A DNA stretch of 64,000 bases, from the NCBI RefSeq assembly GCF_048403405.1, contig NZ_CP183129.1. One strand, 5' to 3'. The notes below the pieces were generated by a model. It worked only from the letters and a program-made list of their open reading frames with translations, was not told the DNA's origin and made no database searches. This DNA is from Escherichia coli. GTDB taxonomy: Bacteria > Pseudomonadota > Gammaproteobacteria > Enterobacterales > Enterobacteriaceae. Every line of letters begins with the position of its first letter. Within the stretch, counting starts at the first letter, position 1. Below are positions 11,036 through 61,170 of this stretch, piece after piece. The position numbers and the translations under genes are program-made.

Positions 11036-12069
11036 ACGAAACTCCCGCACTGGCACCCGATGGTCAGCCGTACCGACTGTTAACTTTGCGTAACAACGCA
11101 GGGATGGTAGTCACGCTGATGGACTGGGGTGCGACTTTACTTTCAGCCCGTATTCCGCTTTCCGATGGCAGCGTCCGCGAGGCGCTGCTCGGCTGTGCCA
11201 GCCCGGAATGCTATCAGGATCAGGCCGCGTTTCTGGGGGCCTCTATTGGTCGTTATGCCAACCGTATCGCCAATAGCCGTTATACCTTTGACGGTGAAAC
11301 CGTGACGCTTTCGCCAAGTCAGGGCGTTAACCAGCTGCACGGCGGCCCGGAAGGGTTCGACAAACGTCGCTGGCAGATTGTGAACCAGAACGATCGTCAG
11401 GTACTGTTTGCCCTGAGTTCAGATGATGGCGATCAGGGCTTCCCGGGTAATCTCGGTGCGACGGTGCAATATCGTCTGACCGACGATAACCGTATCTCCA
11501 TTACTTATCGCGCCACAGTTGATAAACCTTGCCCGGTGAATATGACTAATCACGTCTATTTCAATCTTGACGGCGAGCAGTCTGACGTGCGCAATCACAA
11601 GTTGCAGATTCTGGCGGACGAATATCTGCCGGTTGATGAAGGCGGCATTCCGCTCGACGGCCTGAAATCTGTCGCCGGAACGTCTTTTGATTTCCGCAGC
11701 GCCAAAATCATCGCCAGTGAGTTTCTTGCCGACGACGATCAGCGCAAAGTGAAAGGTTACGATCACGCATTCTTGTTACAGGCCAAAGGCGATGGCAAGA
11801 AAGTGGCGGCGCATGTCTGGTCAGCAGATGAAAAATTGCAGCTGAAGGTCTACACCACCGCTCCGGCTCTGCAATTCTACTCCGGCAACTTCCTCGGCGG
11901 CACACCGTCGCGGGGAACCGAACCTTACGCCGACTGGCATGGACTGGCTCTGGAAAGCGAATTTCTGCCGGACAGCCCGAACCACCCTGAATGGCCGCAA
12001 CCAGACTGCTTCCTGCGTCCTGGCGAAGAGTATTCCAGCCTGACGGAATATCAGTTTATTGCTCAGTAA
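11029..12069 (+). CDS. galM: Aldose 1-epimerase (galactose mutarotase)
   Basis: 346 aa; overlaps the galK 3' end by 7 nt; recognised as GalM. Confidence 0.95.
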
Positions 12070-18035: not shown

Positions 18036-18064
18036 CAAAAAAGCGCCTTTAGGGCGCTTTTTTA
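18036..18064 (-). terminator. Terminator of the Lys/Val tRNA operon
   Basis: aaaaaagcgcc-ttta-gggcgctttttt hairpin flanked by T/A runs on both strands. Confidence 0.65.
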
Positions 18065-18636: not shown

Positions 18637-18800
18637 ACTTTTTCGTTGCTTTCGGTTTGTTTGATATCCCGTGGCAACGGCGGCATATATTACTGATTTC
18701 AGACTTGAGTGCAACAAAAATTTCGATGTAGATCACTCAACTGCTTATGATTCGCACGACACGACCAGAAATAATGCGACTTCTGGTCGTGTGTTATGCA

Positions 18801-39973: not shown

Positions 39974-40576
39974 ATGGAAGCGCGAATTTCAACTGAACGG
40001 CATGTGCAGCGCCAGCAGAAATTGAAGGAACAGGTCGATACGCGCGTCGCGGCGGCGATAGAGAAAAAAGGGATTTTGATTGTTTTCACCGGCAATGGCA
40101 AAGGGAAATCCACTGCCGCGTTTGGTACTGTGACGCGCGCGGTGGGTCATGGCAAAACGGTGGGGGTTGCGCAGTACATCAAGGGGCAATGGGACAACGG
40201 CGAATACAACCTTCTCCAGCCGCTGGGGGTTGAGTTTCATATTATGGGAACCGGTTTTACCTGGGAGACACAGAACCGGCAAGCGGATATCGACGCGGCG
40301 AAAGAGGTCTGGTCGGAAAGCAAACGGATGCTGGCTGACAAGCGTTACGACTTAGTGGTGCTTGATGAGCTGACCTATATGCTGGCTTACCATTATCTGG
40401 ACACCGAAGAAGTGATCGCTTCTCTGCAAAACCGCCCGGCACAACAAAGTGTCATTGTCACCGGACGCGGTTGCCACAGTCAGATATTAAAAATGGCGGA
40501 TACGGTCAGCGAAATCCGCCCCGTCAAACATGCTTTTGATAACGGCATTCAGGCGCAGCCGGGTATCGACTGGTAA
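39974..40576 (+). CDS. Cob(I)yrinic acid a,c-diamide / cob(I)alamin adenosyltransferase (CobA/BtuR family)
   Basis: 200 aa; P-loop GNGKGKST; near-colinear with E. coli BtuR as I recall it (IIVFTGNGKGKTTAAFG...GFTWETQNR...VVLDELTYM...VKHAFD). Confidence 0.88.
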   Translation: MEARISTERHVQRQQKLKEQVDTRVAAAIEKKGILIVFTGNGKGKSTAAFGTVTRAVGHGKTVGVAQYIKGQWDNGEYNLLQPLGVEFHIMGTGFTWETQNRQADIDAAKEVWSESKRMLADKRYDLVVLDELTYMLAYHYLDTEEVIASLQNRPAQQSVIVTGRGCHSQILKMADTVSEIRPVKHAFDNGIQAQPGIDW

Positions 40577-40579
40577 TAA

Positions 40580-40606
40580 CTGCGCCTGGCATCCCGCCAG
40601 GCGCAG
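40580..40606. terminator. Bidirectional terminator between the adenosyltransferase gene and the convergent LysR gene
   Basis: Perfect 11-bp inverted repeat ctgcgcctggc / gccaggcgcag with a 5-nt loop, flanked by A/T; abuts both stop codons. Confidence 0.7.
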
Positions 40607-40609
40607 GTT

Positions 40610-41515
40610 TTACATCTCCTGCGGTACGACCGATTTCGCCAGCAACCATTCACGAAATTGCTGCAAGTGCGGCGAGTCAGACTTCTCTTCCTGCCACGTC
40701 ATAATAAAACGATTACCGGTACGAATAGGCACATCACAGGGAATCACCATATCGCCACTATCCAAATCATGTTGAATAGCGAACCGTGGTAACAGCGCCA
40801 CGCCGAGATTAGAGCGCACGGCGGCAATCAGCATTGAAAGCAAATCGAAACGTGGTCCGTTATTGACCAGCGGACTGCTAACGCCAGATAAAGCAAACCA
40901 CTCTTCCCAGCCAGTAATACGGGTGCTTTGATGCAGAAGTGGTAACTCAGTAAGCAGTTCTGCCACTGACAGTTTTTGATCGGACATTGCAAGCAAACTG
41001 CCGCTGCATACCGGCAAAATCTCCTCATCAAAGAGATATTCTACTTCCGCCCAGGGCGCGCAAAAATTTTCGCGCATAATGACAGCATCGTACTCCCGAT
41101 TAAGAAAATCGCCGTTATTAGCTAAAGAATGAATATTAACAATAATATCGGGATGTAACTTTGTGAATTCATGTAAATTTGGGATTAACCAGTGGGTACT
41201 AAAAGTAGGATTAACGGCAAGTTCAATAACCTGAACCGTAGGCTGCCAGGTCATAATGGTATTGGTATCGCGTTCCAGCTTATTTAATGTTTCTTTTACT
41301 ATCCCCAGGTAATACTTCCCTGCATCATTAAGAAAAATACGTTTTTTAGAGTGTGAAAATAACGGAGTATGTAAAAATTCCTCCAGCGCACTCACTTGTC
41401 TGAATACAGCACTTTGGGTTAACGCTAACTCCTCTGCCGCTCTGGTATAACTTTCATGACGTGCGACGACCTCAAAAGTCACCAGCAGCTCCGTTTTAGG
41501 TATTTTTCCTCGCAT
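40610..41515 (-). CDS. LysR-type transcriptional regulator
   Basis: 301 aa; N-terminal HTH (ESYTRAAEELALTQSAVFRQVSALEE) and LysR substrate-binding domain. Confidence 0.88.
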   Translation of the reverse strand: MRGKIPKTELLVTFEVVARHESYTRAAEELALTQSAVFRQVSALEEFLHTPLFSHSKKRIFLNDAGKYYLGIVKETLNKLERDTNTIMTWQPTVQVIELAVNPTFSTHWLIPNLHEFTKLHPDIIVNIHSLANNGDFLNREYDAVIMRENFCAPWAEVEYLFDEEILPVCSGSLLAMSDQKLSVAELLTELPLLHQSTRITGWEEWFALSGVSSPLVNNGPRFDLLSMLIAAVRSNLGVALLPRFAIQHDLDSGDMVIPCDVPIRTGNRFIMTWQEEKSDSPHLQQFREWLLAKSVVPQEM

Positions 41516-42179: not shown

Positions 42180-43049
42180 TTATTTCAGAACAGTTTTCAG
42201 TGCTTCACCGATATCCGCCAGGCTGCGAACGGTTTTCACGCCTGCGGCTTCCAGAGCAGCGAATTTCTCATCCGCAGTCCCTTTTCCACCGGCAATGATC
42301 GCACCCGCGTGGCCCATACGTTTGCCTTTCGGCGCAGTCACACCAGCGATGTAACCCACAACAGGCTTGGTAACGTGCTCTTTGATGTACGCAGCCGCTT
42401 CTTCTTCAGCGCTACCGCCGATCTCACCGATCATCACGATCGCTTCGGTCTGCGGATCTTTTTCGAACATTTCGAGGATGTCGATAAAGTTAGAGCCAGG
42501 GATCGGGTCGCCGCCGATACCAACACAGGTCGACTGACCGAAACCGTAATCCGTGGTCTGTTTCACCGCTTCATAGGTCAGTGTACCGGAACGGGAAACG
42601 ATACCCACTTTACCCGGTTTGTGAATGTGACCAGGCTGGATACCGATTTTGCATTCACCCGGAGTGATAACGCCTGGGCAGTTCGGGCCGATCATGCGAA
42701 CGCCCGCTTCATCCAGTTTCACCTTCACGGTCAGCATATCCAGCGTCGGGATGCCTTCAGTGATGGTGATAATCAGTTTGATGCCTGCATCAATAGCTTC
42801 CAGAATGGAGTCTTTGCAGAACGGTGCTGGTACGTAGATAACAGAAGCGGTAGCGCCAGTAGCAGCAACAGCTTCACGCACGGTGTTGAACACCGGCAGG
42901 CCGAGGTGGGTGGTGCCGCCTTTACCTGGGGTTACGCCGCCAACCATTTTAGTGCCGTATGCAATGGCCTGTTCTGAGTGGAAAGTCCCCTGGCTACCGG
43001 TAAAGCCCTGGCAGATAACCTTGGTGTTTTTATCAATTAAAATGGACAT
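42180..43049 (-). CDS. sucD: Succinyl-CoA synthetase alpha subunit
   Basis: 289 aa, [24 protein letters not shown]...; recognised as SucD. Confidence 0.97.
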
Positions 43050-44215
43050 TATTTCCCCTCCACTGCGGCAACAACCTGCTGAGCTGCATCCGTCAGACCT
43101 TTTGCTGCAATAATATTCAGGCCGCTGTCAGCCAGTTTCTTCGCGCCGAGTTCGGCGTTGTTACCTTCCAGACGTACCACGACCGGTACGTTAACACCCA
43201 CTTCCGCTACCGCGCCGATGATACCGTCAGCGATCAGGTCGCAACGAACGATACCGCCGAAGATGTTAACCAGAACGGCTTTCACTTTGTCGTCAGAGAG
43301 GATGATTTTGAACGCTTCGGTTACACGTTCTTTGGTTGCGCCGCCGCCAACGTCAAGGAAGTTAGCTGGTTCGCCGCCGTGCAGTTTAACGATGTCCATC
43401 GTACCCATCGCCAGACCTGCGCCGTTAACCATACAACCGATGTTACCGTCCAGCGCAACGTAGTTCAGTTCCCACTGTGCAGCCTGTGCTTCACGTGGAT
43501 CTTCCTGCGACTGGTCACGCATTTCGCGCAGATCAGGCTGGCGGAACAGTGCGTTGCCATCAGCGCCCAGTTTGCCGTCGAGGCAAATCAGATCGCCCTG
43601 TTTGGTGATGACCAGCGGGTTGATTTCGATCAGCGCCAGGTCGCGCTCCAGGAAAATGGTCGCCAGGCCCATGAAGATTTTGGTGAACTGCTGAACCAGT
43701 TTACCTTCCAGACCCAGTTTGAACGCCAGCTCGCGTCCCTGATACGGCATCGGGCCAGTCAGCGGATCAAGCGCAACTTTGTGGATCAGGTGCGGAGTTT
43801 CTTCCGCCACTTTTTCGATTTCCACGCCGCCTTCGGTGGAGGCCATAAAGACCACACGACGGGAACTACGGTCAACAACGGCACCGAGATACAGCTCTTT
43901 AGCGATATCGGTCGCTGCTTCAACCAGAATCTGGTTAACCGGTTGGCCATTGGCATCTGTTTGATACGTTACCAGACGCTTGCCCAGCCAGTTTTCTGCA
44001 AAAGCACGGATGTCTTCTTTGCTGTTTACAACTTTCACACCGCCCGCTTTACCGCGGCCACCAGCGTGAACCTGACATTTCACTACCCACGGACCGGCAC
44101 CGATTTTTGAAGCGGCTTCTTCTGCTTCGCGCGGAGTAGTACAGGCATAACCCACCGGTGCTGGTAAGCCATAGCGGGCAAAAAGTTGTTTTGCCTGATA
44201 TTCATGTAAGTTCAT
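43049..44215 (-). CDS. sucC: Succinyl-CoA synthetase beta subunit
   Basis: 388 aa, [18 protein letters not shown]...; 1-nt overlap with sucD. Confidence 0.97.
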
Positions 44216-44255
44216 GTGTTCTGTCCATCCTTCAGTAATCGTTATCTTTTAAACC

Positions 44256-44286
44256 GTAGACCGACACCCTATCCACGTCGGTCTAC
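44256..44286 (-). other. Intercistronic stem-loop in the sucB-sucC spacer
   Basis: Perfect 10-bp inverted repeat gtagaccgac / gtcggtctac with an 11-nt loop, inside the 93-bp sucB-sucC spacer. Confidence 0.5.
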
Positions 44287-44308
44287 AGTGCAGGTGAAGC
44301 TTAAACTA

Positions 44309-45526
44309 CTACACGTCCAGCAGCAGACGCGTCGGATCTTCCAGCAACTCTTTGATCGTTACCAGGAAGCCCACGGATTCGCGACCATCGATCAGACGGT
44401 GATCGTAGGACAGCGCCAGGTACATCATCGGCAGGATCTCAACCTGACCATTCACCGCCATCGGACGATCTTTGATAGCGTGCATACCCAGAATTGCGCT
44501 CTGCGGCGGGTTGATGATCGGCGTAGACATCAGGGAACCGAACACACCACCGTTGGTGATGGTGAAGTTACCACCGGTCAGATCTTCAACCGTCAGCTTG
44601 CCGTCACGGCCTTTAACTGCCAGCTCTTTGATTTTCTTCTCGATGTCTGCCATGCCTAGGGTATCGACATCACGCAGTACCGGCGTCACCAGGCCGCGCG
44701 GCGTAGAAACCGCCATGCTGACGTCGAAATAGTTGTGGTAAACCACATCATCGCCGTCGATAGACGCGTTCACTTCCGGGTAACGTTTCAGGGCTTCAAC
44801 CACCGCTTTCACGTAGAAGGACATAAAGCCCAGACGAATACCGTGACGTTTTTCAAACGCTTCACCGTACTGCTTACGCAGATCCATAATCGGCTTCATG
44901 TTGACTTCGTTGAACGTGGTCAGCATAGCGGTGGAGTTTTTCGCTTCCAGCAGACGCTCTGCCACACGCTTACGCAGGCGAGTCATCGGGACACGTTTTT
45001 CGCTACGTGCAGCCAGAGCCGGTTGCGCCGCCGGAGCAGCCGCTGCCGGAGCAGACTCTTTCGCCGGGGCTTTCGCCAGATGTTTTTCCACATCTTCACG
45101 AGTCAGACGACCACCCACACCGGTGCCTTTAATGGCGCTGGCGTCGAGGTTGTGTTCAGCCAGCAGGCGACGGATCGCCGGGCTTAACGCATCGTTGTTT
45201 TGCTCTTCCAGAGACGCCTGCTGGCGTTGCGCCGGAGTGGACGCTTTCTCTTCAGATTTGGCGCTGGTTTCTTTACCGGCGCTGTTGCCTTCACGCAGGC
45301 GACCAAGGATCTGACGAGACGTTACCGTTGTACCTTCATCTTCCAGAACCGCATCCAGAATGCCGTCTGCTGATGCCGGTACTTCCAGTACCACTTTGTC
45401 AGTTTCGATTTCTACCAGCACTTCATCACGTACGACTGCGTCGCCGGGTTTTTTATGCCAGGTTGCGACGGTGGCATCGGCTACGGATTCAGGCAGGTCA
45501 GGGACCAGAATATCTACGCTACTCAT
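44309..45526 (-). CDS. sucB: Dihydrolipoyllysine-residue succinyltransferase (E2o)
   Basis: 405 aa; lipoyl domain, Ala/Pro-rich linker, catalytic domain; recognised as SucB. Confidence 0.97.
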
Positions 45527-48342: not shown

Positions 48343-48503
48343 CGTGATCCCTTAAGCATCTTTTTTATGCTTACTTCGCCGTGGATACTACCACGCACAG
48401 TGATGTGCGTGCCGGGGTTCACTTGCGAGCTCTTGTCTACGTAGTGGCTCGCGAAGGAACCTTTAAAAACTGTCTTAGTGTCAGGGGCAGTTTTTAAAGA
48501 TTT

Positions 48504-48690
48504 CCTGCATTTCTTTTGTAGGCCGGATAAGGCATTCACGCCGCATCCGGCGCTGTTTGCCTGATGCGACGCTTGCGCGTCTTATCAGGCCTACGATTTC
48601 TGCATTTCTTTTGTAGGCCGGATAAGGCGTTCACGCCGCATCCGGCACTGGTTGCCTGATGCGACGCTTGTGCGTCTTATCAGGCCTGGG
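48504..48690. repeat. Two tandem BIME-type units (paired REP palindromes) in the sdhB-sucA spacer
   Basis: About 93-bp unit ...tttgtaggccggataaggcRttcacgccgcatccggcRctgKttgcctgatgcgacgcttgYgcgtcttatcaggcc... occurs twice in direct tandem with 4 substitutions; each unit holds two inverted REP sequences. Confidence 0.8.
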
Positions 48691-60382: not shown

Positions 60383-61170
60383 TGCTGACAGCCAGGGCAC
60401 CAGTAAAACGGGCGAGATGACAGCGTGGTTTTCTCAATGATGCTGCCACAGCGTTCACACGGTTCGCCATCACGATGAAAAACCTTAAAGCGAAACAACG
60501 CCCCATGATGTTTATTCTCATCCACCTGCCCCCGCGTAGCGTAAGAAAGTCGAGGAATATCCAGTAACGCGTCTGCGAGTGCATCCAGTTGCGCCGCACT
60601 GAGATCTTTCGCTTTACGATTGCCGGTTAACCCCACCTGCCAGAGGATCTCCACCCGCAAATAATTGCCAAGTCCTGCCAGAAACGCCTGATCGAGCAGT
60701 AATCCAGCAAACTGACGGTTACGAAAGCGCGGCGACAATAATCGTTCCTTTACCACCTCTGGCGTCAGATTCGGATCCAGCACATCTGGACCAACGCGTT
60801 GTAAAAACGGATGCGTGGTCAGTTGTTCCGGGGTCAACATCTCAATATCCGAGGCGCTATAAAGCAGAATGGTTTTGTCAGCCGTTTGCAGTTTTACCCG
60901 CAATACTCGCGTGGTCTGCGGCTCTTCGCCGGTTTCAACCACGCGCCAGACGCCGTAAAGCTGATTATGGCTGTAGAGCGTTAAGTCGTTGGAAAAATGA
61001 GTTAACAACGCCTTACCACGCGTTTCCACATGGGTAACGTGTTGACCGATAAGTCGTGATTGATAAGATTTTAACTGCGGGAAGGCAAACCAGACATCAG
61101 TTAGTGGTTTGCCTTTGATCGCCGCCTCCAGGTTATCCGCTGCACGGCGGATCTCCGGGCCTTCAGGCAT
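60379..61170 (-). CDS. nei: Endonuclease VIII (DNA glycosylase / AP lyase)
   Basis: 263 aa; N-terminal MPEGPEIRR (catalytic Pro2/Glu3) and C-terminal zinc finger CxxC...CxxC. Confidence 0.96.

Follow-up and report, generated by a model that had tools for sequence, protein, structure and literature searches.

The sucB-sucC spacer of Escherichia coli contains a strong stem-loop inside a highly transcribed operon, sdhCDAB-sucABCD, and the question is what this structure is and what it does there. It was examined in a stretch of 64,000 nucleotides (contig NZ_CP183129.1; below, the window). Both neighbouring genes are on the minus strand: sucB (odhB) occupies 44309..45526 with its TAG stop codon at 44309..44311, and sucC occupies 43049..44215 with the ATG start at 44213..44215 (gene names are those of the RefSeq annotation beneath identical E. 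coli matches). The spacer is exactly 44216-44308, i.e. 93 nt. sucB ends in tandem in-frame stops, GTG TAG TAG (44306-44311; second TAG at 44306-44308). An 801-nt stretch at this locus was 100% identical to E. coli strain 2012C-4221, and both spacer flanks were found in 5425 of 5426 complete E. coli genomes, some of which matched as two pieces.

An initial annotation of the window had placed a perfect 10-bp inverted repeat in this spacer. This was borne out by coordinates, folding and shuffles. The arms GTAGACCGAC / GTCGGTCTAC lie at 44256-44265 / 44277-44286 and are separated by 11 nt; on the transcribed (minus) strand the order is CACUGUAGACCGAC-GUGGAUAGGGU-GUCGGUCUACGG. RNA folding of the minus strand yielded a helix of 15 bp in which spacer positions 20-34 are paired with 42-56. 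Its 5' strand, ACUGUAGACCGACGU, runs over 44275..44289 (perfect core GUAGACCGAC, 44277-44286), its 3' strand, GUGUCGGUCUACGGU, over 44253..44267 (perfect core GUCGGUCUAC, 44256-44265), and the loop GGAUAGG over 44268..44274, all on the minus strand; the loop has 11 nt when the perfect core alone is counted. The only irregularities in the helix are terminal G.U pairs. The hairpin alone has a dG of -20.9 kcal/mol and the whole spacer a minimum free energy (MFE) of -27.1 (z = -3.26). With native flanks the ten core pairs form with a probability of 1.0. When the spacer was shuffled 5000 times with dinucleotides preserved, just 3 shuffles contained a perfect hairpin of at least 10 bp. The within-species variants that were sampled all fall into the loop or the adjoining inner wobble pairs; the stem was invariant in them, i.e. 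it offered no covariation. The tail past the helix reads UUAAAAGAU and is devoid of a U-tract, and a consensus scan of the spacer region returned neither a promoter-like nor a terminator-like site (0). In this respect the annotation, which had noted the missing U-tract and argued against a terminator, was correct. A search of 43900-44700 with the Rfam 15 covariance models, including suc-associated motifs, detected no family at E <= 10 other than a chance match to SNORD43 (E = 9.5).

The comparison of genomes identified the stem-loop as one allele, short and without a BIME, of a REP/BIME-2 locus known to be polymorphic; the annotation had recognised neither the REP/BIME identity nor the polymorphism. 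The 93-nt hairpin allele is carried by 3396 of the 5426 genomes (2559 identical across 51 nt, 837 with 1-2 differences). K-12-type long alleles were present in 1991 genomes at a coverage of at least 80%, roughly 1100 of them with 365 nt and 800 with 274 nt, and other alleles, including a 261-nt type, in a few dozen. The locus is dimorphic: 63% of the genomes have the short form and ~37% a long one, and copy-number classes exist in addition. In the long alleles 168-272 extra nt of REP repeats are located between the two arms, i.e. the array sits at the position of the loop. The spacer of K-12 MG1655 has 274 nt, and in the alignment both arms are present, CACTGTAGACCG at left and TCGGTCTACGGTTTAAAAG at right. 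The K-12 array begins with the unit GTAGACCGGATAAGGC...CCGGC, followed by GCCTGATGCGACGC...CTTATCAGGCCTAC and GTAGGTCGGATAAGGCG...CATCCGAC; next is a second y-type unit, and the last, degenerate unit ends with TTCGGTCTAC. One more 91-nt REP pair in strains 163, D4 and YSP8-1 results in a spacer of 365 nt. As expected of dispersed REP DNA, the K-12 insert had a median of 8 other matching places per genome.

How are the short and long alleles related? A simple deletion from the K-12 allele was considered as the origin of the short allele and rejected because the loop sequence ACGTGGATAGGGTG is absent from K-12. E. albertii failed as an outgroup for polarity. The blood isolate E. coli MS20659 (L090, 251-511) has a 261-nt spacer nearly identical to that of E. 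albertii (L009), and the two have in common a 14-nt deletion in the fourth REP as well as their substitutions. By sequence, this likeness would imply either recombination between the species or a polymorphism that is shared and very old. As an E. albertii-type allele circulates within E. coli, both events are conceivable. The single-hairpin architecture in other genera suggests that a single REP-type hairpin may be the older state and that the BIME-2 array may have filled the loop later; against a firm polarity, the E. albertii-type allele in E. coli demonstrates that alleles cross species boundaries or persist across them.

The helix itself is common to all alleles. In the K-12 spacer an outer helix of 15 bp, ACUGUAGACCGGAUA / UAUUCGGUCUACGGU, closes the entire BIME-2 in the MFE as well as in the centroid structure (MFE -107.8, z -6.5). 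The shared core, GUAGACCG/CGGUCUAC, had a pair probability of ~1.0 in the partition functions of the 93-, 261-, 274- and 365-nt alleles and of E. albertii. Inward of these shared 8 bp the short allele continues with A-U, C-G, G.U and U.G, and the long alleles with G.U, A-U, U-A and A-U. The sucB stop and this frame helix are 19 nt apart, the helix and the sucC AUG 37 nt, and neither distance differs among the four E. coli allele classes or in E. albertii. A rule reportedly set out by Liang, Rudd and Deutscher in 2015 concerns a REP within ~15 nt of a stop codon; because the hairpin starts 19 nt past the stop, the rule would not cover it. For the long alleles the thermodynamic prediction may overstate the frame helix in vivo, since it can form only after the whole array has been transcribed and the local REP hairpins fold first.

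Is the hairpin then a REP? A conserved GTAG tetranucleotide at the hairpin foot is a criterion for REPs (PMC3333891). Here GTAG opens the 5' arm and CTAC closes the 3' arm, i.e. GTAG is present on both strands. REPs are, however, imperfect palindromes, and the stem core here is perfect. The stem mismatch is needed for TnpA_REP, and perfecting the palindrome abolishes binding and cleavage (Ton-Hoang et al.). Local alignments to the y and z2 REPs of K-12 were no better than those of shuffles (p = 0.47-0.73), and a canonical REP identity was rejected on these grounds. A match was confined to the outer 8-9 nt, which resemble the array's two outermost units, both degenerate, in K-12 (p = 0.02 and 0.004): the outer GUAGACCG of the 5' strand recurs in the first REP of that BIME-2 allele and CGGUCUAC of the 3' strand in its last, degenerate REP. 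Nor is the dyad a dispersed repeat. It had no second copy within the 64-kb window and, across 5425 genomes, a median of 1 location per genome. Because of the perfect palindrome, the single copy and the lack of similarity to y and z2 units beyond the outer 8-9 nt, we designate the hairpin REP-derived, or REP-site-associated, and not a REP.

The known systems at and beyond this locus provide a frame for this assignment. BIME-2 elements, which are built of alternating y and z2 units in tandem with short linkers, vary in copy number among strains at a given locus (PMC3333891). Such an arrangement is absent from the window and present in the 261-, 274- and 365-nt alleles. The BIME-2 between sucB and sucC of K-12 has been documented (Espeli and Boccard, 1997, as cited by Sutormin et al., 2019, PMC6379681), and gyrase cleaves the K-12 allele strongly in vivo (PMC6379681). 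The window allele shares with it the locus, the flanks, the outer arms (GUAGACCG / CGGUCUAC), the frame helix and the distances to stop and AUG; it differs in that y and z2 units are missing and that an 11-nt loop replaces the 168-272 extra nt. Presumably, judged by what its sequence lacks, the window allele has neither the gyrase site nor the REP-associated 3' end which is found within the K-12 array (762937, see below). REPs inside operons can be functional as well. The malE-malF REP, an example ascribed to Newbury and colleagues in 1987, is said to be an intra-operon mRNA stabiliser. More generally, REPs and hairpins inside operons have been described as dual elements, partial terminators and stabilisers of the upstream mRNA (bioRxiv 10.64898/2026.03.23.713779; PMC5927463; PMC8577784; PMC11925234). 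The sucB-sucC hairpin resembles the malE-malF REP and REP325 in yjdMN (bioRxiv 10.64898/2026.03.23.713779) as a GC-rich extragenic hairpin with a GTAG foot between co-transcribed neighbours, without a U-tract and with an RNA 3' end a few nt downstream, which at our locus was mapped in the K-12 allele. It departs from them in its single copy, in its perfect core and in the lack of a significant resemblance to y or z2 units.

A mapped 3' end bears on the role of the helix. In Term-seq data of MG1655 (LB, OD 0.4) a 3' end of class "orphan" was reported at 762981 (+) with 1569 reads (Adams et al., 2021, PMC7815308, Supplementary file 1). This coordinate corresponds to position 482 of the K-12 locus (L001), and the RNA ends with ...UCGGUCUACGGUUUAAA-3'. 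Counted from the last paired base of the frame helix the end is 5 nt further downstream, and counted from CUAC 8 nt; from the foot of the helix onward the window is identical to K-12. Transcript ends near the dyad, one of the checks proposed with the annotation, were thus substantiated in K-12, 5 nt past the same helix foot in identical sequence. By equivalence with 762981 the short allele is predicted to have an RNA 3' end at 44248 (minus strand, spacer position 61, ...CUACGGUUUAAA-3'), i.e. an end at ...CUACGGUUUAA(A), window 44248 +/- 3, would be expected from sequence. The 762981 end is modest and appears on one of the three Term-seq condition sheets (PMC7815308). On a second sheet, which from the order of the tabs is probably LB OD 2.0, the 3' end is instead at 762937 (L001 position 438), 9 nt past the fourth, internal y-type REP. 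The third sheet contains no 3' end in the K-12 spacer. The shift from 762981 to 762937 suggests a condition-dependent choice among hairpins, a choice that is impossible in the short allele. No Rho-termination region was called in the K-12 spacer, and EHEC 3'-end tables have no entry for sucB or sucC.

Structurally, the hairpin is reminiscent of an intrinsic terminator, with a stable GC-rich stem and, in K-12, a 3' end 5-8 nt beyond. It differs from one in that the tail GGUUUAAAAG is without a U-tract and matches no terminator pattern and in that the downstream genes need read-through. RNase III substrates have about two helical turns, roughly 20 bp or more, and the helix of 15 bp falls short of this. 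In the passages covered of an RNase III survey, the site listed for this operon lies 5' of sucA, and the sucB-sucC interval has none. On account of the short helix and of the known site upstream of sucA, RNase III processing is unlikely. Of the RNA processing or stability element envisaged by the annotation, a role in 3'-end formation or stability is the part best supported, by the K-12 3' end; the processing part is not upheld as far as RNase III is concerned. In a survey of mRNA decay sucB/sucC was not among the pairs with an at least 2-fold differential decay (Dar and Sorek; the operon was included; K-12, exponential phase only).

We then asked how far the hairpin extends among relatives. 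A scan of a genome collection furnished 80 loci, and the sucB-sucC spacer was extracted from 37 Enterobacterales, 38 including the window. A local hairpin with a dG of -13 kcal/mol or lower was present in 38/38 spacers; 30 of the 38 beat at least 95% of their shuffles (median z -3.0). The conservation across Enterobacteriaceae considered in the annotation accordingly holds for the presence of a hairpin, but not for the dyad sequence, which is not kept outside Escherichia. This turnover between genera also disfavours a sequence-specific protein-binding site, the other function that had been put forward. In several Enterobacteriaceae the flanks are retained (UCACCUG 5' of the hairpin, GAUAACGAUUAC..GAAGGAUGGA 3' of it), and the hairpin between them is a different, REP-like one. 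The arms are GTAGGCCT..AGGCCTAC in Citrobacter, CAGACCGGATG..CATCCTGTCTG in Enterobacter BIGb0383, GTAGGCCGGAGGG..CCCTCCGGC in Pseudocitrobacter, GGCCGGATG..CATCCGGC in Superficieibacter and CCCGCGGGCC..GGCCCGCGGG in Pluralibacter. More distant genera have unrelated GC-rich hairpins, most of which begin within ~25 nt of the sucB stop. The heptamer UCACCUG (44291..44297, minus strand) adjoins the hairpin on its 5' side and, despite the differing hairpins, is shared by Escherichia, Citrobacter, Pluralibacter, Pseudocitrobacter, Enterobacter and Superficieibacter. As TCACCTG (44291-44297) it resembles the 3' end of 16S rRNA (GAUCACCUCC). RNAalifold with positional homologues from 8 genera recovered just 5 pairs with a covariation term of ~0, which is uninformative because the hairpins of different genera do not align.

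Downstream of the fast-changing hairpin block a second block, CUGAAGGAUGGA (44224..44235, minus strand), is conserved in the 3' third of the spacer. It holds the sucC Shine-Dalgarno sequence GAAGGA (44228-44233), which is covered by the longer form CUGAAGGAUGGA(C/U)AGAAC, and the conservation continues through the sucC start at 44213-44215. The seed of Spot 42 (nt ~18-35) is predicted to pair with this block at about -23 kcal/mol in E. coli, and similar pairing (~-19 to -27 kcal/mol overall) is predicted in Citrobacter, Enterobacter, Pantoea, Serratia, Yersinia and Providencia. The predictions used the seed region only; duplexes with full-length Spot 42 gave meaningless end-to-end pairing. The predicted pairing covers the Shine-Dalgarno sequence ~17 nt downstream of the helix and would explain why the 3' block is conserved beside a rapidly changing hairpin. 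Miyakoshi et al. (PMC6393394) cite an experimental validation of pairing between Spot 42 and the sucC 5' end; they also report that in Salmonella SucD is repressed relative to SucB on glucose. Sequestration of the sucC Shine-Dalgarno sequence by the hairpin was rejected: deletion or disruption of the hairpin in silico left its accessibility essentially unchanged. A hairpin upstream of a Spot 42-targeted ribosome-binding site is also known from the gal operon, with a hairpin at the end of galT and Spot 42 acting at the start of galK (PMC8577784, PMC11925234). In the model for that operon, cleavage or termination downstream followed by 3' trimming back to the hairpin generates polarity (PMC8577784, PMC11925234). 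Unlike in gal, the mechanistic steps at sucB-sucC are drawn by analogy only.

Taken together, the REP-derived frame hairpin probably defines or protects an mRNA 3' end after sucB, as an exonuclease barrier and/or as a weak attenuator, and most transcription would still proceed to sucCD. In the sdhCDAB-sucABCD mRNA the helix would fold 19 nt past the sucB stop and act as a 3'-end-defining structure. Its substrates would be transcripts that are weakly terminated at the helix or cut downstream, e.g. near the Spot 42-targeted sucC ribosome-binding site; by analogy with gal, it is plausible that this block is the source of cleavage or termination products which are trimmed to the hairpin. 3'-to-5' exonucleases would trim back and stall a few nt past the helix. 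An mRNA ending after sucAB would thereby be protected, and most polymerases would read through into sucCD. This proposal starts from what was established directly, namely the helix, the allele structure, the retention of the helix in all alleles and the mapped K-12 3' end at its foot. From there we infer that the same 3' end is formed in the short allele, that stalled exonucleases and/or weak attenuation produce it and that the ratio of sucAB to sucCD is modulated in this way.

Alternatively, the hairpin could be a neutral relic of REP/BIME dynamics, the residual or original state of a REP-occupied site without a BIME-2 array; it would survive because it does no harm, and a 3' end at its foot would be incidental and of no regulatory importance. 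More broadly, the sucB-sucC hairpins could reflect repeated colonisation by selfish REPs and not selection for function. The high frequency of both alleles (63% vs 37%) and the copy-number classes suggest a weak constraint on content. The known strain-to-strain variation of BIME-2 copy number (PMC3333891), the REP-like GTAG/CTAC feet, the complete turnover of the hairpin sequence between genera and the absence of sucB/sucC from the pairs with an at least 2-fold differential decay in K-12 are consistent with this. Yet a relic hardly explains why the frame helix and its exact distances are kept in four E. coli allele classes and E. albertii, why a strong hairpin is found in 38/38 Enterobacterales spacers and why a measurable 3' end is located at the helix foot in K-12. 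We regard neutrality as possible, though doubtful. A different, selective reading is rather unlikely in our view, namely that the frame helix is a selected 'clamp' which renders the spacer tolerant of REP traffic, so that the 63/37 dimorphism mainly toggles a strong gyrase site. A 15-bp helix that closes 0, 2 or 3 BIME units would then keep the foot for the 3' end and the 19-nt and 37-nt distances constant. If true, lineages would differ in the local control of supercoiling and in the sucAB:sucCD balance at unchanged coding and promoter sequences.

The remaining explanations assign the hairpin a single, defined activity. As a strict transcription attenuator it would terminate polymerase, weakly intrinsically or with Rho, and fewer polymerases would reach sucCD. 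The K-12 3' end 8 nt past CUAC is at a distance typical of hairpin-dependent termination, attenuation by REP325 is partly Rho-dependent (bioRxiv 10.64898/2026.03.23.713779), and internal terminators with read-through have been described in this operon (Conway et al.). Against this, the tail GGUUUAAAAG has just three U and fits no terminator pattern, no Rho-termination region was called in the spacer, and sucCD has no promoter of its own there, so that most transcription must read through. Strict attenuation appears improbable. Even less probable is a site which acts at the DNA level on supercoiling or regulation of the operon, as a cruciform or by binding gyrase or a transcription factor. Extrusion of a cruciform, or binding of a dimer, is conceivable for a perfect 10-bp dyad, and the K-12 allele is strongly cleaved by gyrase in vivo (PMC6379681); but the y-type REPs of BIME-2, the preferred target of gyrase, are missing from the short allele, the dyad differs in sequence from genus to genus, and the element sits between two cistrons of a highly transcribed operon with no promoter nearby. 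Least probable of all is an endonuclease processing site that splits the sucAB and sucCD halves, by RNase III in the stem or by RNase E beside it. The AU-rich UUUAAAAGAUAA past the helix resembles a single-stranded RNase E substrate; for RNase III, however, the 15-bp helix is shorter than typical substrates, and the operon's documented site is 5' of sucA, with none listed for the sucB-sucC spacer.

A role of the hairpin at the mRNA 3' end after sucB, as favoured above, would be a small biological surprise as the long allele was already known and the proposed mechanism is established. The allele distribution has practical consequences. At this position of a central metabolic operon K-12 is unlike two-thirds of the sequenced E. 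coli, among them O157:H7, ATCC 25922 and ST131-type strains, and caution is called for when K-12 transcript and gyrase maps are applied to other strains at sucB-sucC. On the other hand, the alleles share flanks and frame helix and differ solely in their repeat cargo. The series constitutes a natural experiment on what REP/BIME elements contribute to 3'-end protection, attenuation and gyrase recruitment.

Several minor observations were made alongside. A canonical REP/BIME cluster with four y/z-type REPs is located in the sdhB-sucA spacer of the window at 48518-48689; its signatures CTTATCCGGCCTAC / CTTATCAGGCCTAC gave 6 matches versus 0.44 expected. In K-12 the sdhB-sucA spacer is home to the known RNase III site and to an internal terminator upstream of sucA. 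About 9 other distinct perfect hairpins of at least 10 bp were counted in the window (16 seeds versus ~1.5 seeds expected in shuffles), at positions including 18759-18792, 40573-40613, 18037-18063, 48461-48499 and 61082-61115. One of them is a perfect dyad of 12 bp, ACACGACCAGAA/TTCTGGTCGTGT; another, of 18 nt, lies between convergent ORFs that end near 40576 and 40610. Finally, one plasmid was among the matches to the hairpin query, and sucC sequence was met on a 76-kb E. coli plasmid, NZ_CP195869.1: a fragment at 11653-11760 has 98% identity to a stretch that begins ~380 nt inside sucC (query 692-801) and is annotated as an ATP-grasp domain protein.
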